In this document: piece by piece, positions 7,489 to 59,039 of the stretch
Position numbering within the stretch: position 1 is the first letter of the stretch
Layout: every line of letters starts with the position of its first letter
NCBI GenBank assembly: GCA_964609135.1
Contig: CAZSQQ010000001.1
Location: 56,673-120,672, forward strand
DNA length: 64,000 bases
Direction of reading: 5' to 3'
Source: an uncultured Candidatus Saccharibacteria bacterium
Lineage (GTDB): Bacteria > Patescibacteriota > Minisyncoccia > UBA6257 > Colwellbacteraceae
Translations under genes and position numbers: made by a program
The notes under the pieces: generated by a model
Seen by the model: only the letters and a program-made list of their open reading frames with translations
Told to the model about the DNA's origin: nothing
The model's database searches: none

Positions 7489-8139
7489 CTAAACCTTGAG
7501 GATGCCCAATCCCAAGATTTTCACTAATTGCCCGCCCCAGACGAGCGTCAAGGCCGCCGATACAATGAAAGGCACGCCTAATGTGGTGTAAAGCTCTTTC
7601 AGCAATACCAGTCGAAAGAGAGAAATCACAACCACGGACAGAAAAACTAAGGGTACAAAAATCACGAAATTGGGCCAGCCGACGAGGAGAGCCGTTAAAA
7701 ACCCTAACTCCGTCTCATAGGGCTTGAAAAACCTTTCCTTATAGCGTTTGAGAAATTTGAGAAAGAGATAGAAAACAAAAGAGACCGCTAAAACAATGAC
7801 CAAGTTCAGCCAAAATCTGCCCCAGGAATAAAAGAGGAAATAACCCAACTGATTATCAAAGAAAAAACCGGGAATATCGTTTGTGGCGGGTATGTTTTTA
7901 TCAACCGGGGAGTTCAGCAGAGTTTTGGTAAATTCGTTATTTGACCAGACATAATATTGGCCAGTGGTGAGAAAAACAACATAGAATACCCTGAATAAAA
8001 TCGTTCCTGTAACCAACTTAAAAACAGCGCGGCTATTTCCGTGAAAATAAAAAAACGCGGCTAAAGCCAAAATCGTCGCCGTAAAAACTGTTGGCAACCG
8101 ACTCAAAAGCGGACCGACCAAAAAATCAGTTATATCCAT
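7489..8139 (-). CDS. polytopic membrane protein, unknown function
   Basis: Long ORF 7489-8466 trimmed to internal Met (MDITDF...) to avoid overlap with ArsR gene; multiple TM helices. Confidence 0.4.
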   Translation of the reverse strand: MDITDFLVGPLLSRLPTVFTATILALAAFFYFHGNSRAVFKLVTGTILFRVFYVVFLTTGQYYVWSNNEFTKTLLNSPVDKNIPATNDIPGFFFDNQLGYFLFYSWGRFWLNLVIVLAVSFVFYLFLKFLKRYKERFFKPYETELGFLTALLVGWPNFVIFVPLVFLSVVVISLFRLVLLKELYTTLGVPFIVSAALTLVWGGQLVKILGLGILKV

Positions 8140-8259
8140 AGTCTTTTTGAGTGTCTTTAGGACCGCGCTCGAACCTATTTTATCAAAAATTCCTGACCTG
8201 CGGAGAGGATTTATCCACAGTTGACACAGAAGTTGGTTGGGAGTAAGATTTAAGCAATT

Positions 8260-8595
8260 ATGCAAGTGCTTAACATGTTGACAAAAGAACAGGTAAACAA
8301 AATAAAGAAAGAGTTGTCGGGCGATGTAGACCGGATGCCTATCATTCTTGGCGCGTTGGGTGATCCGGGCAGATTCCGGATTTTCAAGCTGCTCATTGAA
8401 CACCACGATATTTGCGTGACGGATGTCGCAAATGTCTTTGACATTACAGTATCCGCGGCATCCCAACAGTTGAGGGTTCTAGAAATGCTGGAACTGGTCG
8501 AAAAAATGAGAATGGGGCAAATGGTTTGCTACGAACTTAAAAAAGAGAATCCCATTGTCAAAAAGTTAATACAATTTTCAAGGTCGGGGGAATAA
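8260..8595 (+). CDS. ArsR/SmtB-family transcriptional regulator
   Basis: wHTH: ...RFRIFKLLIEHHDICVTDVANVFDITVSAASQQLRVLEMLELV... Confidence 0.7.
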   Translation: MQVLNMLTKEQVNKIKKELSGDVDRMPIILGALGDPGRFRIFKLLIEHHDICVTDVANVFDITVSAASQQLRVLEMLELVEKMRMGQMVCYELKKENPIVKKLIQFSRSGE

Positions 8596-43826: not shown

Positions 43827-44024
43827 CTAAGCGCGCGAGACGTTCACTGCGGCAGGGCCCTTTTCGGTTTCGCTTACCTCAAAGGTGACCTTATCGCCAA
43901 CCTTCAATTCGTCGAAAGTAACGCCCTTCAACTCGTTAGAGTGAAAGAAAAGATCCTTGTCCTCGCCTTCGCGGGCAATGAATCCAAATCCCTTCTGTGT
44001 AAGAGTCTTGATTGTTCCTTGCAT
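43827..44024 (-). CDS. cspA: cold-shock protein
   Basis: 65 aa; KGFGFI RNP-1 motif, FFHSNEL RNP-2. Confidence 0.85.
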   Translation of the reverse strand: MQGTIKTLTQKGFGFIAREGEDKDLFFHSNELKGVTFDELKVGDKVTFEVSETEKGPAAVNVSRA

Positions 44025-44124
44025 TTGGTTGTTTATATTGTTGCTACGAGAAACTCGACATGTTTTCGCTTCCTAATGGTCTAGATGCAATAGACAAAAA
44101 TGATGCCCTATAAGCCCTGTTTTG

Positions 44125-44325
44125 TCAATTCTGCGACAGAATGTTTTGGACCCGGCCTACCTGGCCATTTGTAAGGCGCACTTTTATGCCGTGCGGGTGG
44201 AATTCGGAGTTGGTTAGGATTTCAGCCACCAGTCCGCGAGTAAGTTCTCCGCCCGCCTGATCGGCTTTTAGAACTACTTCCACTTCCATTCCCGGTTTTA
44301 TATCTTTCCTATTCTGCCCGCTCAT
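44125..44325 (-). CDS. YwbE (DUF2196) family protein
   Basis: 66 aa; VEVVLKADQAGGELTRGLVAEIL...GIKVRLTNGQVGRV. Confidence 0.55.
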   Translation of the reverse strand: MSGQNRKDIKPGMEVEVVLKADQAGGELTRGLVAEILTNSEFHPHGIKVRLTNGQVGRVQNILSQN

Positions 44326-44778
44326 AGTTTCAGGGATTTGGCTTTTTCTGAAAGTTCAAATTTTTCCATCTCCTAATTTTTTCGTTGGCCAAATAGTTAT
44401 TTGTAATTTTGGATTTTATACTGCTGATTGCATAATCTAATAAATCTTTGTAATACTTCTAGGTAACAGACCTTGCATTTTCACTAGCTCCTGTATTTAT
44501 AACTTCTTGGGCCACTTGAATACATTTTTTAGCTTTCACAATTCTCTGCTGCTCTCGTAAAATAATCTCTGTGCTATCGGCTATGTCACCAATTCTACCC
44601 TTTACATACATATCTACAGATTAACTTCTAGTCGTATTGAAAAATTTAGCTCTTTTATCTAAATCGCTTTCAAGTTCTTTTTTGGTGGGAACTTTATATC
44701 GTGCGGAGATTCTTTTTCTACCCATAAATTTATTCCCCTAATTTTTTTGTTGGCTAGTTAGTCAATTTCATTCTCTAT

Positions 44779-45414
44779 CTATACAAAATTCATATTTTCT
44801 TCCTTTAAAAACTTTTGAAGTATAGAATTATTAGAAATAATAAATCTGTTACTGAAACCTAAACCAAATTCATTTTCATCTTTAAGAGGTTTTAGCTTTA
44901 ACAACTTTCTCATTTCGAGTATAAAAAGATCCATATATGATCTTTCTTCCGGTATAAAAAGAGTATACACACTTGGTCCTGTTTTTTTAAATTCTGGATA
45001 CCTACTAATCTCATAAAAAAGGTTATATTTTTTAACTATAAAATCTAGATATTTTGAAGTTAAAACCACGCTTTCTAAATTACTTGCTTCATCTGTACAA
45101 TTCTTTAGTAGTTTTTCCAAATCATGCTCAAATAATCCAATGGAACCCTTTTTAAGAATTAGAAAAGATTTTAAGTAATTTTCTATACTTTGATGGAAAA
45201 GAAATAAAAATGTTTCGATGCCCATTCTACATAAAATTCTACCAGCAAAATATAAATCAGTTCCTTTCTCAGCGTATCCACTAAAACTTTTTCTAGATAT
45301 TTTTGAAATTAATTTATTAGACTTTTTGGGATACAAATTTTGACCAAATTGCAACTCACAATAATTTTTAACGAATTTGTAATCGCTAAAATTTCTTATA
45401 CTCTGATTTGCCAT
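44779..45414 (-). CDS. hypothetical protein in low-GC island (possible HEPN-like helical protein)
   Basis: 211 aa, very AT-rich; helix pattern FHQSIENYLKSFLILKKGS...EHDLEKLL; no firm motif. Confidence 0.35.
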   Translation of the reverse strand: MANQSIRNFSDYKFVKNYCELQFGQNLYPKKSNKLISKISRKSFSGYAEKGTDLYFAGRILCRMGIETFLFLFHQSIENYLKSFLILKKGSIGLFEHDLEKLLKNCTDEASNLESVVLTSKYLDFIVKKYNLFYEISRYPEFKKTGPSVYTLFIPEERSYMDLFILEMRKLLKLKPLKDENEFGLGFSNRFIISNNSILQKFLKEENMNFV

Positions 45415-45495
45415 ACATAATCTTAGTTCTCAATCATTTCTTCGACCTTTTGCTTGAGATTCTAACTGAATTATCAATCTTAAAATAGGTGCCTA

Positions 45496-46674
45496 TTAAA
45501 CCCTGCTCATGACTACAGTTTGATTTTTTATTCTTGAAGTAAGTATTCGCAGAAACTTTAATGGGCAACTTTCTACGAAACTTCTAAATAGCCACGCTTC
45601 TTTATCTTCTAGAACTTTGTCTAGATACTCTGGTTGATACCTCACAAGTTCACTCATAAAAAACATGGTGAGATAAATAACTATATCTTCATGTATTGGA
45701 AATCTCTGATCATCAATAATCATAGGAAGGGTGATATCGAAAGAAGTATTATCTAGCAAATACTTTGGTTCTATTGATGAGTCAAATATCTCTTTTAGTA
45801 TCTTCCAACAATTTATCACTCCGTAGTTAGTCGCCTCCAGAGAAGGATAAGAATCTAAAGATATTACCTTATCTTCCTTAAATTGATAAAAATCTAATTC
45901 TAGCCATTCCATTCTATTAAATTGGAATATATCGCGAAAGGCTAGGTCAGCTTTTGTCGGCATAGATACAAACTCAAAATATTCATCAAATTTTTTAAAA
46001 TTCTCATCCAAGATGGTTTTAGTAATGTCTTTCGGGATAGCTAGAACTGACCAAGCCCTTTTCGTATCCTTATCAAAACAAATACGATGAATTACTGAGC
46101 CTATATTTAGATCTCCGAATTTACACTCTAAGTATTGGTACGAAATTTCTATATTATAACTAAATAGGTCTACTACCTTAAATTTCTTCGGCGGTTCTAT
46201 TTGGAAAACTTCTTTGTAAAATAAATAAAATACTTGATTGTCCCCGTGATTAACATCAAGATACTTGTTAATCAAATCACTTACAAATTGATCTTTACTG
46301 TAATAAATGCCGTGAGATACTTTATCTTGTAGGCTAGGATTTTTTAACAAGATAAACGCCTTAACTAAATTTAAGAAAGAGTAATAATAAAGAAGGGAAG
46401 AAGAGCGAAAGTTAGTTTTGGTTGCTACTTCCCAATAATTATTTGCTTGACGGATAAAGGCTCTAAATCTATGCCACGTATTCTCAAATAATGTTTCGGG
46501 TACATTAAACTTCGAAAACAATTCGTAGGCTGCCGACTTAACTTCTGAAACATGAATCAACAAAAGCCATAGTTCTTGTTCTATATCTAGAGAAGTACCC
46601 ATTTCTATCGTGGAAAAAGGTGGATCGTATCTCCAACTATCTATTCTTCTCAGTTGTGGTGCACCATTTGTCAT
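45496..46674 (-). CDS. hypothetical protein in low-GC island (candidate accessory/defense)
   Basis: 392 aa, no recognisable catalytic motif; about 30% GC. Confidence 0.35.
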   Translation of the reverse strand: MTNGAPQLRRIDSWRYDPPFSTIEMGTSLDIEQELWLLLIHVSEVKSAAYELFSKFNVPETLFENTWHRFRAFIRQANNYWEVATKTNFRSSSLLYYYSFLNLVKAFILLKNPSLQDKVSHGIYYSKDQFVSDLINKYLDVNHGDNQVFYLFYKEVFQIEPPKKFKVVDLFSYNIEISYQYLECKFGDLNIGSVIHRICFDKDTKRAWSVLAIPKDITKTILDENFKKFDEYFEFVSMPTKADLAFRDIFQFNRMEWLELDFYQFKEDKVISLDSYPSLEATNYGVINCWKILKEIFDSSIEPKYLLDNTSFDITLPMIIDDQRFPIHEDIVIYLTMFFMSELVRYQPEYLDKVLEDKEAWLFRSFVESCPLKFLRILTSRIKNQTVVMSRV

Positions 46675-46774
46675 ATTATTCCCAAAAACTAATTTTGGTC
46701 TTTGGAGAGTTTAGTAATCTTTTCTTTTTTCTTTGCTAAAAATTCCTTCAAAACCTCCTTTGGCTCGCGGTGGA

Positions 46775-47347
46775 TCATCTTCTTCCCCTGTTATGAGTAG
46801 CAATAGAAACTATCGAGAAAATGTCTTCTCCCTCTTTTAGAGCATCTAACAACTTCTTAAACATGTAAGCTTTGGGCATATTCGTTTTCTCTTGAATCAT
46901 CAAAAGTTTTGCTAACAATATTAGAAACTCTATGCGATATTCTCCAAAATTACTAATGCCTTGATATTCCTTAATTTTATCCTTGTGTGATTCAAATAAA
47001 TTTTTGATATCTAATGCTATTCCCCGTTCTTTTTCACTATTAACAGGCGAGGTTTCATTCCAAATTTCTATCAAAAAATCCAAAAATTTCTTAATCTTCA
47101 CCTGTTTTGAATTCATCTTAATAAGAAGATCTACTGCCCAGTGAATATGCTTAGGAGTTCTAATATTAGACCAGCCTCCATTTTTCTTAACTTGTCGATA
47201 TTTTATCAAAATATCAAATTTACTTAGTTTACCTTGATATACGCCCACAATTATCTTCGGTTCTGGTTCAAGAATCGTGATGGGCTCAAAAACGCTTCCG
47301 TCTTTATTGAAGGTCATCCACTTCTTTATATCTTCTGGTCTTTCCAT
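46775..47347 (-). CDS. putative type II restriction endonuclease (partner of MTase)
   Basis: 190 aa; start overlaps MTase stop by 1 nt (coupled); no clear PD-ExK identified. Confidence 0.3.
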   Translation of the reverse strand: MERPEDIKKWMTFNKDGSVFEPITILEPEPKIIVGVYQGKLSKFDILIKYRQVKKNGGWSNIRTPKHIHWAVDLLIKMNSKQVKIKKFLDFLIEIWNETSPVNSEKERGIALDIKNLFESHKDKIKEYQGISNFGEYRIEFLILLAKLLMIQEKTNMPKAYMFKKLLDALKEGEDIFSIVSIATHNRGRR

Positions 47348-47348
47348 T

Positions 47349-48191
47349 TCAAAACAATTTCGGGTTCGATTTTAGATCCTTAAATCTTTTTATCGATAGG
47401 TTTAAATATTTTTTCTCTGTATCTATTCCAATGAACTTTCGATCATTTAAAACAGCCGCCAATCCAGTTGTAGAACTGCCAGTGAAGGGATCCAGTATTA
47501 AATCTCCTTTCTTTGTACTAGCTAAAATTATTCTATTCAATAAATCAATAGGTTTTTGAGTAGGATGTTTACCAAATTTCTTTTCTCCGTTTTTTGGAGT
47601 ACCGATAACCCAAACTGATCTCATTTGCTTTCCTGGCTTTTTAATGAAATCTTTCAAATGCCAATTACCTTCCTTAATTAATTTGTAATTAAATGTATGT
47701 TTCGCTTTTTTATCCTTTCTCGCCCATATTAAAGTTTCGTGACTGGCAGTAAAATAGCGACCGCTCAGATTAGGTGACGCATTCGGTTTAAACCAAGATA
47801 TATCGTTCAAAATATGATATCCCAAAGCCTGTAATGCGTACCCACACTGATATATTGAATGATAAGTCCCGCTCACCCAAAGAGTACCACTTGGTTTAAG
47901 AACTCTTTTGCACGCTTTAAGCCAACTATAATGAAAATCATAATCATCTTTAAAGCCTTTACTTTTATCCCAATCTCCTTTGTTAACACTAACTCTTCGA
48001 CCCGCATGCACGGTAAAACCACCGTTGGAAAGATTGTAGGGGGGATCCGCAAAAATCATATCAATTGAATTCTCTGGTATTTTCTCTAAAAGCTTTAGGC
48101 TATCGCCATGATATAAAACAAAATCTCCTTGAATGGAGTAAGGTTTTTGCTTGATTGAGGATAGTATTTTCTTATCTGTTTGGATCATCAA
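47349..48191 (-). CDS. DNA methyltransferase (beta-class N6-adenine/N4-cytosine)
   Basis: Motif IV DPPY (IFADPPYNLS) N-terminal; motif I FxGxG (DPFTGSSTTG) C-terminal. Confidence 0.8.
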   Translation of the reverse strand: MMIQTDKKILSSIKQKPYSIQGDFVLYHGDSLKLLEKIPENSIDMIFADPPYNLSNGGFTVHAGRRVSVNKGDWDKSKGFKDDYDFHYSWLKACKRVLKPSGTLWVSGTYHSIYQCGYALQALGYHILNDISWFKPNASPNLSGRYFTASHETLIWARKDKKAKHTFNYKLIKEGNWHLKDFIKKPGKQMRSVWVIGTPKNGEKKFGKHPTQKPIDLLNRIILASTKKGDLILDPFTGSSTTGLAAVLNDRKFIGIDTEKKYLNLSIKRFKDLKSNPKLF

Positions 48192-48250
48192 AGATACCTA
48201 AATTATGGTCATTTTCCGGCTTAAGACAACTTCTCCACCCTCACCCCGAT

Positions 48251-50019: not shown

Positions 50020-50595
50020 ATGGGAAAGGTTCGGCATGGCACGATCGAACTCATCGTGGGCGGCATGTACTCGGGGAAGAGCGAAGAGCTTATCCGCCGA
50101 GTCGAAAGGGTCTTGATTGCCAAGCGCGCGGTGCAGGTCTTCAAACCGTCGATCGTCCCGGGTGAAGGGGAGGTTGTAGCCCACAACGGCAGGTCGGCGG
50201 CGGCGATCGCAGTCACGAGTCCTGAGGAGCTTATTCAACTACTCAAGCCCGAGACCGCGACCGTTGCAATCGACGAAATCCAGTTCTTCGACTATCGCAT
50301 CGTGAATGCCGTCCGCGCAATCGCAAAGCAAGGGCGGCGCGTCATCTGCGCTGGTCTTGACCTCGACTTCCGCGGAGAACCCTTCGGCTCGGTGCCGGAA
50401 CTCTTGGCCGTCGCGCAGGAGGTCATGAAGCTCACGGCCATCTGTGTCGTCTGCGGAGAACCCGCTACCATGAGCCAGCGGCTCGTGGACGGGAATCCCG
50501 CGAAGTGGGACGACCCAACGGTCGTAATCGGCGCCGAAGAGAAGTATGAAGCGCGCTGCCCTGAGTGCCACGAGATCGAACGACCGGTACCATAG
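50020..50595 (+). CDS. tdk: thymidine kinase
   Basis: GGMYSGKSEEL P-loop; C-terminal zinc ribbon CVVCGEPA...CPECH; about 60% GC. Confidence 0.85.
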   Translation: MGKVRHGTIELIVGGMYSGKSEELIRRVERVLIAKRAVQVFKPSIVPGEGEVVAHNGRSAAAIAVTSPEELIQLLKPETATVAIDEIQFFDYRIVNAVRAIAKQGRRVICAGLDLDFRGEPFGSVPELLAVAQEVMKLTAICVVCGEPATMSQRLVDGNPAKWDDPTVVIGAEEKYEARCPECHEIERPVP

Positions 50596-50620
50596 AAAGG
50601 CCAGGTGGTACAATAAAGGC

Positions 50621-51508
50621 ATGCGACAGTACTTAGACGTCCTATCCAAAGTCATGACCGAAGGGACTGACCGCTCCGATACGGAGGAAGTTTCAACTCG
50701 CTCCACGACAGCGCAATTCATGCGCTTCAACATGCAGGACGGCTTCCCGGCAGTCACGACGAAACGGCTCGCCTTCAGAACGGCGGTCGCGGAACTTCTC
50801 TGGTTCATCTCGGGGAGTTCGAACGTAAACGAACTCCACAAATTAGGCGTTAAGATCTGGGATGGGGACGCCTATAAGCCCTCCTGGCTTCCAAAAGCGC
50901 AATTTCCCGGAGATGTCGGACGTAATTACTCCAAGCAGTGGCGCGAGTGGCTCGCGCCCGACGGCCGGCATGTGGACCAACTAGGCATAGCGATAAATCT
51001 AATCCAGGAAAAACCGTGGACGGCAAGAGCGCTCGTCTCGGCCTGGAACCCGGGCGAACTCGAAGCGACGGCGCTTCCCGCCTGCCACGTACTCTTCCAG
51101 TTCTACTCGGCCGGCGGAAAGCTCTCGCTAACCATGTACCAGAGAAGCTGCGACATGTTCCTCGGCGTCCCCTTCGACACCGCGGAATTCGCCCTGCTTC
51201 TCCACCTCGTGGCACAGATCACGAACCTCGAACCGTGGGAACTGATTCACGTTCTCGCGGAGCCGCATATCTATGAGGGGCACTTCGAGGCCGTGAAGGA
51301 ACAGCTCACGCGCGAACCATTTCCGCATCCGAAGCTCTGGCTGAATCCGGAGCTAAGGACGCTCGATCAAGTGGTCGCGAAATACCGCGAACTCCTGCAA
51401 AGGGCGGAAGGCGAAGAAAAGCCCCTGAAGCTCATGGATGAAGTGGCCCGGCTCGAGGGCTATAAGTCGCATGAACCCCTGAAGGCCGAAATGGTGGTCA
51501 TCAAATGA
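50621..51508 (+). CDS. thyA: thymidylate synthase (ThyA)
   Basis: MRQYLDVL...RFNMQDGFPAVTTKR...ELLWFISG; catalytic Cys in ALPACHVLFQFY; start trimmed from ORF 50546. Confidence 0.85.
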   Translation: MRQYLDVLSKVMTEGTDRSDTEEVSTRSTTAQFMRFNMQDGFPAVTTKRLAFRTAVAELLWFISGSSNVNELHKLGVKIWDGDAYKPSWLPKAQFPGDVGRNYSKQWREWLAPDGRHVDQLGIAINLIQEKPWTARALVSAWNPGELEATALPACHVLFQFYSAGGKLSLTMYQRSCDMFLGVPFDTAEFALLLHLVAQITNLEPWELIHVLAEPHIYEGHFEAVKEQLTREPFPHPKLWLNPELRTLDQVVAKYRELLQRAEGEEKPLKLMDEVARLEGYKSHEPLKAEMVVIK

Positions 51509-52029
51509 TCGGACGAAGCGTGATCTCCATCGTGGCCGCGATGGACCGGAACCGCGTGATAGGGGTCGAGAACCGCCTGCCGTGGCTCATGCCAGCCGAC
51601 ATGAAGAGATTCCGAGATCTCACGATCGGGAAACCCATCCTCATGGGCCGGAAGACCTTCGAATCCATTCTCGCCTCGCTCGGGAAACCACTCCCCAACC
51701 GCCTGAACATCATTCTCACTCGTGACCAGAACTACAAGGCGCCGAACGGCTGCCGAGTGGTTCATTCTGTAGATGATGCACTCGCAATGGCCAACGGAGC
51801 GGAAGAGGTGATGGTCGCAGGCGGCGCGGACATCTTCCAGCAATTCCTTCCCTACGCCGATTCGGTCTACATGACCGAAATCGATTCTGACTTCGAGGGC
51901 GACGCCTCCTTCCCAGAGATGCCGGAGACGGAGTGGCGGCGGGTTCAGAGCGTCCGACACGAACCGGACGAGAAGAATCCTCATCCCTACTCCTTCCAGC
52001 TCTACGTTCGGAAGGAGAAGCTGAACTAG
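51505..52029 (+). CDS. folA: dihydrofolate reductase
   Basis: ISIVAAMDRNRVIG...LPW...GRKTFESI; ATGA overlap with thyA. Confidence 0.85.
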   Translation: MIGRSVISIVAAMDRNRVIGVENRLPWLMPADMKRFRDLTIGKPILMGRKTFESILASLGKPLPNRLNIILTRDQNYKAPNGCRVVHSVDDALAMANGAEEVMVAGGADIFQQFLPYADSVYMTEIDSDFEGDASFPEMPETEWRRVQSVRHEPDEKNPHPYSFQLYVRKEKLN

Positions 52030-52117: not shown

Positions 52118-52555
52118 ATGACCAAGAAACTAGTCAACCTCCGATACGCCAAAGGAAGCAAATACGGAGAAACGCTAAAAGAAATAAAAACTGCAAAAGT
52201 TTGCCCCTTCTGCCCGAAAACTTTCAAGTGGCATACTAAGCCAACTCTCCGACGAACCAAAAACTGGTTAGTTACAGAAAATTTCAACTCTTACAAGAAC
52301 GCTCGCTACCATTTTCTTGTCATAAGTAAATCTCACAAGGAGGGTTTCCAAGACCTCACTCTTCCCGATTGGCGACAAATTTCAGAACTTGTCCGCTGGG
52401 CTATTCGGAAATACAAAATCAAAGGAGGTGGTTTGATCCTGCGTTTTGGAGACAGTAACTATACGGGGGCAACAGTTACACATTTGCATTTACATTTAAT
52501 AGTCCCGCAACTTAAGCGCGGCAAGGCTCTCAGGGTAGAATTCCCTATCGGATAA
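52118..52555 (+). CDS. HIT-like nucleotide hydrolase/transferase (histidine-triad-like)
   Basis: C-terminal H-x-H-x-H-x-x (THLHLHLIV); N-terminal CPFC. Confidence 0.45.
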   Translation: MTKKLVNLRYAKGSKYGETLKEIKTAKVCPFCPKTFKWHTKPTLRRTKNWLVTENFNSYKNARYHFLVISKSHKEGFQDLTLPDWRQISELVRWAIRKYKIKGGGLILRFGDSNYTGATVTHLHLHLIVPQLKRGKALRVEFPIG

Positions 52556-52556
52556 G

Positions 52557-53381
52557 TTACTTTACGAGAATTAATTTCACTCCGGCCATCCGGAACACCC
52601 GTTCAACGTTCAAGTAAGCGTTGCCGGTCTGGAAATAACATTTCTTGATTCCCGACTGAGAAATAATCTGGGCGCAAGGCACGCAAGGAAAAACATTTAT
52701 GTAGATGCTTGTTCCCTCGAGACTCAAACCCCGTCTTGCGGCTTCACCAACTAAAAGCTGTTCCACGTGAATCGAAGTTGAAAGATCTCTTTTGGTTCCA
52801 GCCTCAATGAAGTCACGGGGATTCCCTTCAATATATGAAATATGGTCGGAGGGCAAATGGTGGCTAACGTCCTCAAGAATCACTTTGCCGTCCTTAACTA
52901 TGACCGCCCCGACCTGCCGCCACCAGTCGGAACTTTTTTCGGCCTGCTTCTTCGCGAGTTCCATTATTTTCCTATCGAAATCGGAGTCGGACACTTCCGC
53001 TTCCTGCGGCAGGTTCTCCGAATAAACATTTTTTTCATCCCAGCGCAGGAAAATGTTGTCATAGAAAACTCTGTTCTTTGGGAAATATTTGTTTACGAAA
53101 TTCAGGGAAATCGCCTCGTCGGCGGTAACGATTTCCGAATCGCCTATTTCGGACAGAGATTTTTTGCCCAGAACCTTTACCGATTTGAATAAGCTAAGAG
53201 ATTCGACAAGCTTTTTTATAGTTTCCGGAGAAAGTGCACGGATTTCCTTGTGGATCCCGGAAAATTCATCGATAAAATCTTCGCCCAAAATATAGAGGAT
53301 ATCAGCGTCATTATGTTTCTTGAAAAATTCGAGATATCCCTCGTGGAGTACCGGAATATAGAGCACGATAACGCGCTTCAT
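52557..53381 (-). CDS. two-domain protein with C-terminal dCMP/cytidine deaminase zinc-binding domain
   Basis: HVEQ...PCVPC zinc-ligand motifs in the C-terminal half; N-terminal about 130 aa unknown. Confidence 0.55.
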   Translation of the reverse strand: MKRVIVLYIPVLHEGYLEFFKKHNDADILYILGEDFIDEFSGIHKEIRALSPETIKKLVESLSLFKSVKVLGKKSLSEIGDSEIVTADEAISLNFVNKYFPKNRVFYDNIFLRWDEKNVYSENLPQEAEVSDSDFDRKIMELAKKQAEKSSDWWRQVGAVIVKDGKVILEDVSHHLPSDHISYIEGNPRDFIEAGTKRDLSTSIHVEQLLVGEAARRGLSLEGTSIYINVFPCVPCAQIISQSGIKKCYFQTGNAYLNVERVFRMAGVKLILVK

Positions 53382-53923
53382 TTTCTCTTTTTCAAAAGAT
53401 GATTTAAGTTCTTTTTAACCGTCTTTTGAATCAGTTTGGAAGTGGAAGTGTCCTTGGCTTGCCGCTTCAAAACCACAACTCTCTTAGAATATTTCCTGAT
53501 GTTACGAAGTTGCTTGGGCGAATAACTCGATTCCTCGGCAATGAAAACGTCGGGGCGAAGATTCCTGATAAGCCCGTACTGCCATTCCCCTTTGCCGTTT
53601 ACATCATCGAGAAGCGCCACAAAATCAACGACGGATTGATAGCTTAACATCTCGCACCGTTCTTTTTGCGGCACGACCGGTCTAAGCGGCCCCTTACTCA
53701 ATCTAACCGCACGGTCACTGTCAACACCCACAACCAGAATATCACCGTGCATCTTCGCTTCATTCAAATAGCGCACGTGACCGATATGAAGGAGATCCCA
53801 AGAACCGATTGTAACCACAATCGTGTGCTTCACCGCCTTCAGGCCATTTATTGCCTGGGTTAGGAGTTCGTAATCGTGAACGATTTTATCCGTTAGTTTC
53901 CTTTTTGGAAAAACGCCATCCAT
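53378..53923 (-). CDS. cytidylyltransferase-like nucleotidyltransferase (HxGH family)
   Basis: GSWDLLHIGHVRYL (HxGH) and VGVDSD. Confidence 0.55.
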   Translation of the reverse strand: MDGVFPKRKLTDKIVHDYELLTQAINGLKAVKHTIVVTIGSWDLLHIGHVRYLNEAKMHGDILVVGVDSDRAVRLSKGPLRPVVPQKERCEMLSYQSVVDFVALLDDVNGKGEWQYGLIRNLRPDVFIAEESSYSPKQLRNIRKYSKRVVVLKRQAKDTSTSKLIQKTVKKNLNHLLKKRK

Positions 53924-54957: not shown

Positions 54958-55788
54958 TTACAAAGTGGTAATGGGCCTCGATTGAAGTATATAGATGTTC
55001 TCTTTCTCCAAAGCCCATTCTATATCTTGCGGTGAACCGTAATGATTTTCAATCTTTAGAGCCAATTTAGCCAATTCTATAACCTGATCATCATCTAGGG
55101 CCTGCTCACTCTTTTTATCGTCCGGTACTTCCACTTCTTTTGTCTCACCATTTTTAAAAATCATCATTGTCTCCTGGGTTTTAATGTCACTGTTTTTTAT
55201 CTCCAGCGTTTTCTTATCAACGACAAAACTGTCTGGAGTAATCATCCCCTGGACCATCATTTCTCCCAAGCCGAAGCCGGCCTCAATCATCAACTCGTTC
55301 TCATCTTTTGTAATGGGGTTTACCGTAAAGACAACTCCGGAAACCTCACTATCAATCATTTTTTGAACTACTACAGCTACCGCCAACTGGTCTTCGCTAA
55401 CATTCTTGTCCTCCGCATAGGCCAGAGCTCCTTTAGATTTAATCGAGTTACAGCAATCCTTTATTCTGTTAATCAAATCTTCCCTGGTTACGTTTAAATA
55501 TGTCTCGAGTTGTCCCGCCCAAGAGGCTGACGAGGAATCTTCAGCCACTGCCGAAGATCTAACTGCAACTCTTTCTGCCCCTAACTTGTCAAAGGCGCTT
55601 AGAATCTCTGCTCTAAGAGCCTCATCGACGGAGTCATATGCGAACTTCCTAAAAACATCGGTGGTAACAATAAAACCAGGGGGCACCGGAATGCCAGCCC
55701 TAGTTAACTCGCCCAGCGACGCCCCCTTACCGCCTACGAGAGAGCTATCGCTCAAACTTACCTCTTCGAATCGGAGCAGGTTTGCCAT
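54958..55788 (-). CDS. stand-alone PEP synthase/PPDK N-terminal ATP-binding (ATP-grasp) domain protein
   Basis: LVGGKGASLGEL...GIPVPPGFIVTTDVF ... PQDIEWA...IYILQSRPIT; 276 aa with no swivel or PEP-utilizers_C domain. Confidence 0.75.
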   Translation of the reverse strand: MANLLRFEEVSLSDSSLVGGKGASLGELTRAGIPVPPGFIVTTDVFRKFAYDSVDEALRAEILSAFDKLGAERVAVRSSAVAEDSSSASWAGQLETYLNVTREDLINRIKDCCNSIKSKGALAYAEDKNVSEDQLAVAVVVQKMIDSEVSGVVFTVNPITKDENELMIEAGFGLGEMMVQGMITPDSFVVDKKTLEIKNSDIKTQETMMIFKNGETKEVEVPDDKKSEQALDDDQVIELAKLALKIENHYGSPQDIEWALEKENIYILQSRPITTL

Positions 55789-56635
55789 GACGTGCGACGG
55801 GCAATTTGTATTCTTTACCCTTGATTGTAGTCTCGGTCACTCCACTAGAATCAACAGCGATTCCTATGCCTTCATTATAACCGGCAGAAAAATCTTCTTC
55901 CGGGGCTCCGACAACTCTTTGAACAAAGGGGTCTAGGCCATCGCCGTGAGTTACCATCCAAACGGCTAATTTTCTGCCGGGGTGTTGGCGATGATAAAAT
56001 TCGGCAAACCTAGCGGCGACATTTACGCCCTCATTGACCCTGGTGGCAATCTGGTCTGGGCCTTCGGCCCCTAATTCTTCTCTTTTTTCTCGATAAGTAT
56101 CCCTATTAAAAGCTTGCCAAAAGGCTGGCGGCTGCTTACCGCCGAACTGACCTCGCAAAAATTTCGCAAATTCAGGAACTTGAAACATCAATCCTTCACC
56201 TAACTTAACATCCGGTCGAGAAACGTTACCCTTAAATCTCCCTGAGTTATTTAGAAGTTGACCCTCTGGAAGACCCAATTCCTTAAGTTTTTTAGAGATC
56301 TCTCCAGCTATAATTTCGGCTGTTTCTCTGGCTCTTTGTCCCAGCCTTTCATCATCCAGCCAAAAGGTTGGGCTGTTGAGTATCAAAAAGTCTTTGGTTT
56401 CTGGATGTTCTTCTAAAATGGCGGCAATCCTCTCGTCAGCCCTCTTTCTCGCTTCCTCAATTCCCTCTGCCGTAAGGTGGCCGTAAGCTCTTTCCTCTTC
56501 AGTCAAATTGTCTGGATCAGCCGGCCGGCGGTTATCGTATCTGCCATGCCTTTGGAGAACTATCAAAGTCTCCCAATCCTCACGAGGTATTTCCGGAGCG
56601 ACAACTTGTTCTGGTACACCTTCAAATTTATCCAT
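55745..56635 (-). CDS. histidine-phosphatase-superfamily (phosphoglycerate-mutase-fold) protein
   Basis: RHG motif (LQRHGRY) and second His (VTHGDG); 44-nt overlap with downstream gene. Confidence 0.5.
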   Translation of the reverse strand: MDKFEGVPEQVVAPEIPREDWETLIVLQRHGRYDNRRPADPDNLTEEERAYGHLTAEGIEEARKRADERIAAILEEHPETKDFLILNSPTFWLDDERLGQRARETAEIIAGEISKKLKELGLPEGQLLNNSGRFKGNVSRPDVKLGEGLMFQVPEFAKFLRGQFGGKQPPAFWQAFNRDTYREKREELGAEGPDQIATRVNEGVNVAARFAEFYHRQHPGRKLAVWMVTHGDGLDPFVQRVVGAPEEDFSAGYNEGIGIAVDSSGVTETTIKGKEYKLPVARHGKPAPIRRGKFER

Positions 56636-56662
56636 ATTCCAAAAAGGATAATGCTATAAACA

Positions 56663-57805
56663 CTATAAAGTGTCAAGACTAAAGGGTGTTGGATCTATAG
56701 TAAACACTTTATTTTTCAACTCCATCGGCAAATACCAAACCAACTGGTAGAACATACCAGCATGACCGGTTTTAGCCAACGGAACGTTGGGAGAAACGAT
56801 GGCTCTAACTTTATCGTGAATGCCAAACCATAACGGCAACAGCGTAGGATCCAGTGCGCCCATAATGTCCTTATACATCGAGAAATTTCGCGCCTGTTCG
56901 TATGATAAGATGAATAACTCGTATTCTTCTTGAGTTAGTTTCTCTTTGGCTTGCTCCTTCAAAGATTCAATACGAGATTTCATTTCCTCATATCTTTTCA
57001 CGAGAGATTCGTTTTCACCCCGAAATTCAACCGCGTGAGTTAACATATTGTAAAGTGGCAACATAGAATCACGCATTCTGGTTTGTTCCAACGGTACAGA
57101 CAATTCTTTTTTAAAAGAAGCACTATCGGGGTCCGTTTCATCATTTATTACCTCCTGAATTATTTTGGCTATTTTATTCCAAAGAACGTTAATTTCACTA
57201 GTATTTTTGTGAGTGTGGGCATCTATAAGCATAGTTATCTCGGCAACTGGGTCCTTAGTTTTGGGGTTGTTTGCAAGTAAATGAACAAGTTTTACGCCGC
57301 TTAAGGCCTGACGAAGATATAAGTCGGCATACTCGCTCTGTAGCAGGTCTCGCTGCACGCGAACAACTCGCCCCTCAAAATCCTCTACGTCTTCAGTCGC
57401 ATCAATAAACTTACGTATCAAATTTTTAAGGTTATCAACATAAAAGTCGTGCAGTGGGCCATCAGCAAATAAGTAATTGACTACCCAAAAACGATAACAG
57501 AACAGTTTATTGAATCTCTGATCTGTGTTAACCAAAAACTCCAGATTTTTCTGATCTCCGCTCTCGTAATCCTTTTTAATCTTATCGAATCCGGCAAACA
57601 ACTCGTCGTGTGCCCAATCTCCGTATTCTTGATATTTCTTAGAATCCGCACCAACCTTTTGAGCAATTTCTTCAAAATACGGCACAATGGGAGGAAACTT
57701 TCTAGGGTAAGTAAACATAAACCCCTCGATGTCATTGGGTATATATCTAGGAAACTTTAATAATTGCTCGTCAATCTTCATAAATGTAACCATCATTACC
57801 GTCAA
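56663..57805 (-). CDS. hypothetical protein (operon partner of GHKL/PEP-swivel protein)
   Basis: 380 aa, no recognised motif; 35-nt overlap with upstream gene. Confidence 0.4.
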   Translation of the reverse strand: MTVMMVTFMKIDEQLLKFPRYIPNDIEGFMFTYPRKFPPIVPYFEEIAQKVGADSKKYQEYGDWAHDELFAGFDKIKKDYESGDQKNLEFLVNTDQRFNKLFCYRFWVVNYLFADGPLHDFYVDNLKNLIRKFIDATEDVEDFEGRVVRVQRDLLQSEYADLYLRQALSGVKLVHLLANNPKTKDPVAEITMLIDAHTHKNTSEINVLWNKIAKIIQEVINDETDPDSASFKKELSVPLEQTRMRDSMLPLYNMLTHAVEFRGENESLVKRYEEMKSRIESLKEQAKEKLTQEEYELFILSYEQARNFSMYKDIMGALDPTLLPLWFGIHDKVRAIVSPNVPLAKTGHAGMFYQLVWYLPMELKNKVFTIDPTPFSLDTL

Positions 57806-59039
57806 GAATTACCCGTTGGCCGTCACGCAATAGAGCTGTGGCGGTCTGTGTGCCGACGACTGCGGGTATATTAAACTCTCTAGCCACAATTGCCGCATGG
57901 CATAAATTGCCACCCAAATCAGTAATTATTCCGCCAGCACGTCTAATGGCTAACAAAAAGTGCGGTCGCGTCATTGCTGTTACAATAATATCGCCGCGTT
58001 CTACCCGAGCCATTTCCTTTTCCATATCGCCAGACATAAACATATTTACTTGCCGAACCGTGCCAATCACTTTACCGGCTGAGGCCGGGTAACCACTCAG
58101 AACTCTTTTGGGCTTCTTCTCAAATGGCTTGAAATACTCCCGCATCGTTTCCTCTAGCTCCTTGTACTGATCGGATGATTTTAACCAGCCTTTCTTATCG
58201 TGGGTAATGGGTATGCCTTCAATGTGTAAATCACCGATAATTTGCTTGATATCTTGGTTGGGAGTAAGTCCTATTTTATCGTAGGTAGTAACCAATCGAC
58301 CGCGGCGATAATTATGGAAACCGTAATAACTCTTATTGAGCCCACTTAGTTGGTAACCCCACCATCCCCAAGCCTTACCTCCCTTAAATTCAAAAGCAAA
58401 ATCGTTCTTTTTATCGTCAATAATCTTGGGAACAAACGGCGGACAAACTTCCCCATTGAAAATCAATTCCAGTTCGCCATTTTGAACGAATGGACCGAAC
58501 CTCAAACCAAATTCTTCTTTTATGTTGCTCAATAATTTCTCGGAAAGTTTAACTTTCAACCGCCTAATAATCACTGCCGTCCCACTTTTCTCGGGATCCA
58601 CGCCTCGATTGATAACAAACGGATATTTATACCAGTCTCCGCTCTCCAGCCAATGGTCTTCGTCATACTCCATAACATATTCTTCCTCGGAATTCCTAGG
58701 GCTAGTTATTAAAGTAAATCCTTTCCCCAAAAATGATGTCGAGGTCTTGAGTCCCAGACCAAATTCTCCCAGTTGAGCTTTCTTCTCCGAAAACCCCAAT
58801 CTGATGGATTTGGCGGCTTGCTCCTCGGTCATACCTCTGCCGTTGTCCATCACGGTTATAAGATCAGGAGTTATATCCACAGAAACGCTCAACTTCTCGT
58901 TGGCCAAACGGGCATCTATGGAGTTGTCGATGAGCTCTGACAAGGCCTCCTGAATGGAATAGCCTGTCTGGCTAATCTTGGTCATAATGCTCCGGTGGGG
59001 AGATATGTCTATGTATTTGGTAGTAGATTTATCCGCCAT
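57771..59039 (-). CDS. GHKL (MORC/HATPase_c-like) ATPase fused to PEP-utilising-enzyme mobile phospho-histidine domain
   Basis: Bergerat N-box ELIDNSIDA, G1 DNGRGM, G2 GEFGLGLKTS; C-terminal GGNLCHAAIVAREFNIPAVVG (swivel His). Confidence 0.65.
   Translation of the reverse strand: MADKSTTKYIDISPHRSIMTKISQTGYSIQEALSELIDNSIDARLANEKLSVSVDITPDLITVMDNGRGMTEEQAAKSIRLGFSEKKAQLGEFGLGLKTSTSFLGKGFTLITSPRNSEEEYVMEYDEDHWLESGDWYKYPFVINRGVDPEKSGTAVIIRRLKVKLSEKLLSNIKEEFGLRFGPFVQNGELELIFNGEVCPPFVPKIIDDKKNDFAFEFKGGKAWGWWGYQLSGLNKSYYGFHNYRRGRLVTTYDKIGLTPNQDIKQIIGDLHIEGIPITHDKKGWLKSSDQYKELEETMREYFKPFEKKPKRVLSGYPASAGKVIGTVRQVNMFMSGDMEKEMARVERGDIIVTAMTRPHFLLAIRRAGGIITDLGGNLCHAAIVAREFNIPAVVGTQTATALLRDGQRVILDGNDGYIYED

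Follow-up and report, generated by a model that had tools for sequence, protein, structure and literature searches.

In the two-component dikinases HpeHI, CreHI and PpsAB, the ATP-grasp domain (PPDK_N) and the swivel domain that carries the catalytic histidine are located on different polypeptides (PMC12167813), and rifampin phosphotransferase (RPH) is a single-chain relative of these enzymes (PMC12167813, PMC4844700). The signature of the swivel, T/S-x-x-G-G-x-x-x-H, is common to HpeH, RPH and phosphoenolpyruvate (PEP) synthase (PMC12167813). VadK (Rv1127c), a derivative of pyruvate phosphate dikinase (PPDK), acts as an autophosphorylating regulatory histidine kinase (PMC13400623), a precedent for the re-use of dikinase modules as phospho-histidine (phospho-His) regulators. 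Also relevant here are the prokaryotic MORCs and paraMORCs, whose operons were described by Iyer et al. 2008 (PMC2292703). The locus presented below combines features of the dikinases and of the MORCs. It lies in a stretch of 64,000 nt (the window) from an uncultured Candidatus Saccharibacteria bacterium (assembly GCA_964609135.1, contig CAZSQQ010000001.1, positions 56,673 to 120,672), and its four consecutive minus-strand genes, g1 to g4, encode a MORC-type GHKL ATPase fused to a swivel domain (g1), an orphan helical protein (g2), a predicted histidine phosphatase (g3) and a stand-alone ATP-grasp subunit (g4). As a whole, they form a real, conserved and uncharacterised system, whose architecture an earlier note on this DNA had read correctly.

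The fusion proposed in that note was confirmed by Pfam matches in g1 to HATPase_c_3 (residues 27-126, E 4e-18) and PEP-utilizers (residues 347-417, E 8e-24). Between the two, a Morc6_S5 match is found at residues 228-302 (27.6 bits vs. a cutoff of 26.2, a small margin), and the same domain is precomputed in most g1 homologues. With its GHKL fold recognised by profiles, g1 is not a conventional PEP synthase fragment devoid of that fold. The motifs quoted for g1 (ELIDNSIDA, DNGRGM, GEFGLGLKTS and GGNLCHAAIVAREFNIPAVVG) are all present in its translation, as is QRHG...THGD in that of g3. Among solved structures, the swivel is closest to RPH (E 8e-20) and PEP synthase, and the GHKL module to MORC3 and MORC2. 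No HisKA or HPt family was detected in the window proteins, the GHKL domain being of the MORC/MutL type with an S5 domain.

Residue conservation in g1 was assessed on an alignment of 21 diverse homologues. In the GHKL module, E35 and N39 (motif I), D65 and G69 of D65-x-G-x-G69 (motif II), G91-E-F-G-x-G96 (motif III), K98 and T154 of G153-T154 (motif IV) are invariant, as is HDKK at positions 280-283 of the S5 domain. Because these Bergerat motifs and the S5 HDKK are invariant, the g1 ATPase looks catalytically competent. The swivel motif reads T373-D-L-G-G-N-L-C-H381, of which T373, G376, G377 and H381 are invariant, and the surrounding GGNLCHAAIVAREF closely resembles the PEP-synthase consensus GGxT[SC]HAA[IV][IV][AS]R (PMC12167813), except that the position of its regulatory Thr, two residues ahead of the catalytic His, holds an invariant Leu379 (GGNLCH).

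The nearest swivel-less relatives of g1 that were found share 26-28% identity with it over residues 5-330. One is a MORC from Prevotella and the other is encoded on a Haladaptatus plasmid, and both sit in operons made of a MORC, a small protein and a large superfamily 2 (SF2) helicase. The Prevotella locus (L004) has a C5-methylase, a MutH-like protein, a GIY-YIG protein and an SNF2/PLD helicase, and in the Haladaptatus plasmid locus (H1) the helicase-related protein adjoins MazF and HsdR fragments. This is the operon context described for prokaryotic MORCs and paraMORCs (Iyer et al. 2008, PMC2292703), so the N-terminal 300 residues of g1 are a genuine prokaryotic MORC module, and the swivel takes the C-terminal place that nucleases or TIR domains have in paraMORCs. 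When the window proteins were compared with those of the first ten homologous loci, g1 was the most conserved component (62-81% identity, vs. 41-56% for g2, 29-56% for g3 and 38-57% for g4), as would fit a hub in contact with every partner. Conservation extends over its GHKL, S5 and swivel domains alike (mean identities 63%, 69% and 73%).

Concerning g4, its only domain is PPDK_N (Pfam, E 3e-87), so that the earlier description of a separate ATP-grasp protein without swivel or TIM barrel stands; the barrel domain PEP-utilizers_C is absent from all four window proteins. Strong family membership suggests that g4 is catalytically intact. It aligns to positions 97-337 of the NCBIfam PpsA model (285 bits vs. 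a cutoff of 598) and residues 305-422 of g1 align to positions 349-463 (104 bits vs. the same cutoff). Since adjacent parts of one PpsA model are matched, the best explanation is that g4 and the swivel of g1 were the first two domains of a PEP-synthase-like ancestor and have come to lie on different proteins, the TIM barrel being lost. The idea of a PEP-synthase-like machine split across four genes does not hold to its full extent: only g4 and the C-terminus of g1 are so derived, and a PEP/pyruvate-binding domain is missing. Likewise outdated is the statement that characterised dikinases keep the ATP-grasp and the swivel in one chain, as HpeHI, CreHI and PpsAB have two components (PMC12167813).

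About 65 loci from genome and metagenome collections were annotated with profiles of each component and de-replicated at 80% g2 identity, giving 35 lineages. In all 35, g1 is followed directly by g2, and the two genes overlap by 11-14 nt in most called loci, bacterial and archaeal alike (26 nt in L077). Where the flanking sequence is long enough, nearly every locus has a PPDK_N gene in the cluster, usually in the last position and sometimes in the first (L037, L080). The genes are thus not scattered in relatives, as they might have been; synteny is kept. About one quarter of the lineages add a second swivel protein of ca. 500 aa, p503, made of a 390-aa N-terminal domain without assigned family and a swivel with a PEP-synthase/PPDK-like TSH motif. 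It usually comes with a further protein, p358, the pair being located upstream of g1 or between g2 and the PPDK_N gene (L019, 4387-6991; also L034, L058, L067, L068 and L076). No SF2 helicase, DNA methylase or endonuclease was found within the cluster in the ca. 65 loci.

As for irregular copies, g1 is present as two overlapping open reading frames (ORFs) in three metagenome contigs (L040, L041 and L062), which could be due to a frameshift, a pseudogene or an assembly error, and in L072 its frame stays open for 736 aa upstream.

Homologues of g1 number 547, and the 120 listed are 58-86% identical; the window itself matches a Candidatus Colwellbacteria metagenome-assembled genome (P0001) at 100% identity. 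Within the Candidate Phyla Radiation (CPR), carriers include Vogel-, Buchanan-, Campbell-, Nomura- and Levybacteria, Saccharimonadia and Parcubacteria. One abundant g1 cluster, with 613 member sequences, comes from Clostridium sp. of human-gut assemblies, and g2 homologues are also found in DPANN archaea (Nanoarchaeia, Woesearchaeota). No copy of the system was found in the IMG/VR viral contigs, no g2 match in the INPHARED phage collection, and on PLSDB plasmids the g1 matches are restricted to separate GHKL-only or swivel-only proteins. In three independent assemblies of the gut Clostridium sp. (L016, L017 and L018), contigs of 274-308 kb end about 230 nt past the PPDK_N gene, which suggests that a repeat, such as an insertion sequence or an rRNA operon, adjoins the operon there.

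The second protein of the invariant pair, g2, has no match in Pfam, NCBIfam, PADLOC or PHROGs, in line with the earlier note, which gave this protein 380 aa and saw no recognisable motif in it. None of its 114 homologues is functionally named by any source, and a g2 profile run against 1.84 billion proteins retrieved only 50 representatives, none fused to another domain and none RPH- or HpeH-like. Its AlphaFold2 (AF2) model is confident (pLDDT 91.9; 18 helices) and without structural neighbour in the PDB (Foldseek, nothing with E below 0.16), which makes this family a clean target for structural and functional discovery. Conservation reveals an invariant polar cluster in g2, including His111 at a helix N-terminus. 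A relationship between g2 and the N-terminal domain of p503 was considered and rejected (hhalign probability 0.4%). In the archaeal locus L024, the contig tail of 490 nt that follows g2 (8084-8573) has no ORF, and short strings recur in its translations, a hint of repeats or RNA genes.

The phosphatase-fold protein expected alongside was confirmed for g3 by a His_Phos_1 match (Pfam, 27.5 bits vs. a cutoff of 21.7) and by catalytic residues invariant across homologues, namely R29 and H30 (R29-H30-G), R101, E107 and H230. Its AF2 model (pLDDT 90) gave 50 listed Foldseek matches in the PDB, almost all to the histidine-phosphatase superfamily with probabilities of 0.99-1.0, the TM-scores being only 0.3-0.6 owing to a large helical insertion. 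Taken together, g3 is a histidine phosphatase that has diverged but keeps its catalytic residues.

A phosphatase gene is found in essentially every locus with enough flank, and its type varies between the g3 histidine phosphatase, p358 (RH...SRT...HG) and a protein resembling low-molecular-weight protein tyrosine phosphatases (LMW-PTP) with a CX5R(S) P-loop. Very divergent g3-type genes (RRHG...THGE) fill the slot in L029, L033, L043 and L063. In p358, the motifs VRHL, SRTxxT and HGQF follow the same order as those of g3, and hhalign aligns the two proteins in register with a weak match (E 0.003, probability 10%); p358 is a probable, very divergent histidine phosphatase. The LMW-PTP-like protein replaces the histidine phosphatase in the archaeal L024 (4804-5736), where it has a C-terminal membrane helix, and in the archaeal-type L078 (7101-8430), where its gene stands in line between g2 and the PPDK_N gene and adjoins a 92-aa acylphosphatase gene. 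That unrelated phosphatase folds fill one slot argues that phosphate removal is integral to the system. Both folds include known phosphatases of N-P bonds in proteins (phospho-His or phospho-Arg), such as SixA, PGAM5 and YwlE: SixA, a His_Phos_1 protein, erases the phosphate on the HPt domain of ArcB and on NPr, and YwlE, of the LMW-PTP fold, is a phospho-Arg phosphatase.

Concerning function, the reading that we favour, at a probability of about 40%, is a four-component phosphotransfer system centred on g1, in which a phospho-His switch on the MORC clamp would be written by the ATP-grasp subunit and erased by the phosphatase, with g2 taking part. We infer this phospho-relay from homology and architecture. 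In a first step, g4 would bind ATP and, acting in trans, transfer a phosphoryl group to His381 of g1, in the way of HpeI on HpeH and of PpsB on PpsA; this step is proposed because of homology and of the characterised split dikinases. The swivel is tethered to GHKL-S5 by a short conserved linker, and its phospho-His state may be linked to the cycle of dimerisation and clamping that ATP drives in the MORC module, either gating this cycle or delivering the phosphate to something that the MORC module holds. Such coupling is suggested because the swivel sits where prokaryotic MORCs and paraMORCs carry output domains and where other dikinases have their acceptor-binding domain. Because of the invariant adjacency and the start/stop overlap of the two genes, g2 would be made in step with g1 and form a complex with it, as a partner or as an acceptor-site subunit, its invariant polar cluster with His111 being a candidate site. 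Finally, the phosphatase would remove the phosphoryl group and reset the system, a role proposed because of the recurrent non-homologous replacement in its slot.

The biological output might lie in nucleoid or DNA transactions, in the control of stress or dormancy, or in defence. A bolder proposal, possible but rather doubtful, is that of an unrecognised phospho-His signalling machine, shared laterally among CPR, DPANN and gut Clostridia, in which g4 as writer and interchangeable erasers would control a phospho-His on a MORC-type clamp of DNA or protein, and the phosphate might be relayed onward to His111 or to a conserved Tyr/Asp of g2. If so, the activity of a MORC clamp would depend directly on the cellular energy state or on an invader signal.

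Several points weigh against the switch. Two lineages (L075 and L077) have the phosphatase, g1 and g2 but no PPDK_N gene within 8 kb, so that the ATP-grasp subunit may be encoded elsewhere or may not be the sole phospho-donor. The switch leaves p503 unexplained, and no DNA-binding or effector domain was identified in the four proteins. Also, no fold or motif is recognisable in g2 on which a role could be based, and a kinase and a phosphatase in one operon would equally fit a metabolic pathway of activation followed by dephosphorylation.

This last point leads to a dikinase pathway like those of RPH, HpeHI and PpsAB, acting on a small molecule or a polymer, in which g4 and the g1 swivel would phosphorylate a hydroxyl or carboxyl of a g2-bound substrate (a metabolite, a xenobiotic, an antibiotic, or a cell-envelope or nucleic-acid polymer), the phosphatase acting later in the route or in immunity and the GHKL module serving as an accessory or a second substrate site. 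RPH is indeed the closest solved relative of the swivel, two-component dikinases exist, the Hpe route includes a later dephosphorylation (PMC12167813), p503 has an HpeH-like order (an unassigned domain, then the swivel) and L078 has an in-line acylphosphatase. We nevertheless consider this pathway unlikely: the structure and profile searches brought g2 no closer to RPH or HpeH, hhalign showed no relation of g2 to p503, catabolic or biosynthetic genes do not co-occur in the neighbourhoods examined, and GHKL-S5, to which the swivel is tethered in place of the acceptor-binding domain of known dikinases, would be left without a role. That same tether lends itself to another interpretation, nucleotide chemistry inside g1. 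By analogy with HpeH and RPH, GHKL-S5 would be the acceptor-binding domain, its pocket holding an acceptor such as ADP or another nucleotide, to be phosphorylated by His381~P. In a second form, GHKL-bound ATP would phosphorylate the swivel His and g4 would work in the PPDK-reverse direction. The system would then serve nucleotide interconversion or salvage in cells without de novo synthesis. The two lineages without a nearby PPDK_N gene would suit this idea, as would the salvage genes found close by in the window (tdk, thyA, folA, dCMP deaminase, HIT), in L078 (DCD, thymidylate kinase) and in L077 (HIT, a nucleotidyltransferase-like gene). Yet a GHKL protein with an S5 transducer works as a hydrolase or a clamp and neither accepts phosphoryl groups nor donates them to a separate domain, nucleotide genes are not consistently close by from locus to locus, the reaction would be energetically wasteful, and g2 and the obligatory phosphatase would be left unexplained, all of which makes it decidedly improbable.

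An anti-phage or anti-mobile-element role concerns the biological purpose and is compatible with the switch mechanism: a MORC sensor or clamp would act, as in the RM-like systems of MORC, helicase and nuclease, with a dikinase phosphorylating invader or host nucleic acid, nucleotides or proteins so as to inactivate or mark them, and the phosphatase would provide safety or reset. The nearest GHKL-S5 relatives sit in MORC conflict operons matching those of Iyer et al. 2008 (PMC2292703), an orphan component is present, the GHKL module faintly resembles MzaB, and the patchy CPR/DPANN/Clostridia distribution at 45-86% identity implies horizontal transfer. In PADLOC-DB 2.0, the N-terminal ca. 120 residues of g1 weakly match the GHKL protein MzaB (E 3e-8 to 4e-9), g4 gives a weak MTase_I match only (E 0.0045), and g2 and g3 give none; a known defence system was rejected, since the MzaB matches are weak and of GHKL level only and the single PDC-M02B match (E 6e-5) was not reproduced in an orthologue. 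The four proteins lack any effector of the nuclease, TIR, pore or protease kind, the sequences are unusually well conserved for an immune gene, and the neighbourhoods inspected are of housekeeping type (uvrC/uvrA/ychF, FtsH, S1, SpoIID, a sigma factor) rather than defence islands. That the system is absent from IMG/VR and from the phage and plasmid collections counts slightly against this role or not at all, and as a whole the odds for a conflict system are low. Lastly, g1 and g4 could be pieces of a frameshifted or degraded ppsA, clustered by chance in a dense CPR genome, considering that g4 aligns next to the g1 swivel on the PpsA model and that the region is tightly packed on one strand. 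This explanation was rejected and its chance is negligible: the swivel gene lies upstream, in an order inverted relative to ppsA, with two conserved genes in between, the N-terminal 300 residues of g1 are an intact MORC module, and the arrangement recurs in 35 lineages from bacteria and archaea with intact ORFs and invariant catalytic residues.

The coordinates of the genes and of the main features of g1 and g3 are given in Table 1.

Table 1. Genes, domains and catalytic codons of the four-gene locus (window positions).
Feature	Residues	Coordinates	Strand	Description	Basis
g1		57771..59039	minus	422-aa proposed hub: MORC-type GHKL ATPase, S5 and PEP-synthase-type phospho-His swivel	Pfam, NCBIfam
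g2		56663..57781	minus	372-aa all-alpha orphan, always 3' of g1	No family match; AF2, 18 helices
g3		55745..56635	minus	296-aa divergent enzyme of the histidine-phosphatase superfamily	Pfam His_Phos_1, invariant residues, AF2, Foldseek
g4		54958..55788	minus	276-aa stand-alone ATP-grasp nucleotide-binding subunit	PPDK_N only (Pfam), NCBIfam PpsA
g1 GHKL module	1-200	58440..59039	minus	Bergerat ATP-binding module	Invariant motifs
g1 S5 domain	201-305	58125..58439	minus	Transducer	Morc6_S5 match, conservation
g1 swivel domain	306-422	57771..58124	minus	Phospho-His swivel	Pfam, NCBIfam, motif
g1 His381 codon	381	57897-57899	minus	Catalytic His	Within T373-x-x-G-G-x-x-x-H381
g3 His30 codon	30	56546-56548	minus	Predicted nucleophile	Invariant RHG motif

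The four minus-strand ORFs listed in the earlier note are all present where it placed them, and its overlaps of 35-44 nt were only partly borne out: g3 and g4 do overlap by 44 nt, but g1 and g2 share 11 nt, and a spacer of 27 nt (56636-56662) lies between g2 and g3. The longest g2 ORF opens with TTG at 57805, hence an apparent overlap of 35 nt with g1; the start consistent with homologues is the ATG at 57781 (MKIDEQLL...). The four genes belong to a dense run on the same strand (uvrA, uvrC, the four genes, ychF), uvrC ending 30 nt upstream of g1 and ychF beginning directly after g4. As uvrC and ychF are equally tight, packing is weak evidence for an operon, and it is the conservation across lineages that makes the cluster more than chance. 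A scan of the locus for promoters and terminators gave counts at shuffle expectation, and no membrane segment was predicted in g1 to g4 of the window. Small genes that weakly match nucleotidyltransferases (MTPAP-like) and HIT come after the cluster in L077.

Elsewhere in the window, positions 50020-52029 (plus strand) form a high-GC island (0.586 vs. about 0.45 elsewhere) encoding thymidine kinase, thymidylate synthase and dihydrofolate reductase, with neighbours on the opposite strand, and looking like a recent horizontal acquisition of thymidylate (dTMP) synthesis genes by a CPR genome. Adjoining it are a HIT gene (52118-52555), a dCMP deaminase gene with an N-terminal extension of ca. 130 aa (52557-53381), a cytidylyltransferase-like gene (53378-53923) and ychF. 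Positions 44001-48200 are low in GC (0.32-0.34) and encode an N6/N4 DNA methylase (47349-48191), a YaaC-like protein (45496-46674), a HEPN-domain protein (44779-45414) and a 190-aa protein without assigned family; they may represent a small islet of restriction-modification (RM) or defence genes, at a distance of about 7 kb from the operon.

No description of a GHKL-plus-swivel architecture was found in PADLOC, in NCBIfam names or in the searchable literature, where a full-text search retrieved no paper combining GHKL/MORC with a swivel, PEP-utilizer or dikinase module. Database names for g1 and g2 homologues are generic ("ATP-binding protein", "PEP-utilizing enzyme", "hypothetical protein"). 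If the proposed switch is right, it would join the swivelling phospho-His carrier of dikinases and of the phosphotransferase system (PTS) with the GHKL clamp of the MORC, MutL and Hsp90 type, two devices never seen together, and would add a writer/eraser phospho-His switch to the known controls of GHKL clamps. The system is among the few multi-gene systems common to CPR, DPANN and human-gut Clostridium at high identity, and may be informative about how ultra-small symbionts live and exchange genes. The Clostridium version, present in hundreds of human-gut assemblies, offers a possible experimental route.

Compared with the described families, the locus shares with HpeHI, CreHI and PpsAB the PPDK_N ATP-grasp on a separate polypeptide (PMC12167813), and with these and RPH the T/S-x-x-G-G-x-x-x-H swivel, located in the two-component forms on another polypeptide than the ATP-grasp, together with the expected shuttling of the phospho-His between two sites (PMC12167813, PMC4844700). 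It differs from all of them in that the swivel is fused to GHKL-S5 and not to a helical substrate domain of the RIF-binding type, to which g2 has no significant similarity, and in that the phosphatase is an obligatory cluster member, outside any catabolic or resistance context. Like prokaryotic MORCs and paraMORCs, g1 has an N-terminal GHKL, an S5 and a family-specific C-terminal domain, and a sporadic, laterally mobile distribution (PMC2292703), whereas its C-terminal domain is a phospho-His swivel where theirs is a nuclease or TIR, and its partners are an ATP-grasp protein, a phosphatase and an orphan where theirs are SF2 helicases, methylases and endonucleases. With VadK, the locus has in common the dikinase ATP-grasp and swivel, the loss of PEP-binding and the re-use via phospho-His proposed here, but VadK is a single-chain actinobacterial metabolic regulator without GHKL, dedicated phosphatase or g2-like partner (PMC13400623).

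As for PpsA and PPDK, g4 and the g1 swivel are closest to the first two PpsA domains, yet the TIM barrel is absent, the domains are on separate proteins in inverted gene order, a Leu stands for the regulatory Thr and scores fall far below the family cutoffs. SixA and YwlE represent the same two folds as the phosphatase slot and erase N-linked protein phosphates; g3, of about 300 aa with its large helical insertion, is only distantly related to them. The first step of the proposed system would thus be most like that of a two-component dikinase, and its architecture like that of a paraMORC, while a defining feature of each family (the RIF-binding-type domain, the RM or helicase partners, the PEP-binding barrel) is missing. 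Since two-component dikinases were already known, we see novelty not in the split but in the joining of a MORC module to a swivel and in the conserved association with g2 and with a replaceable phosphatase.

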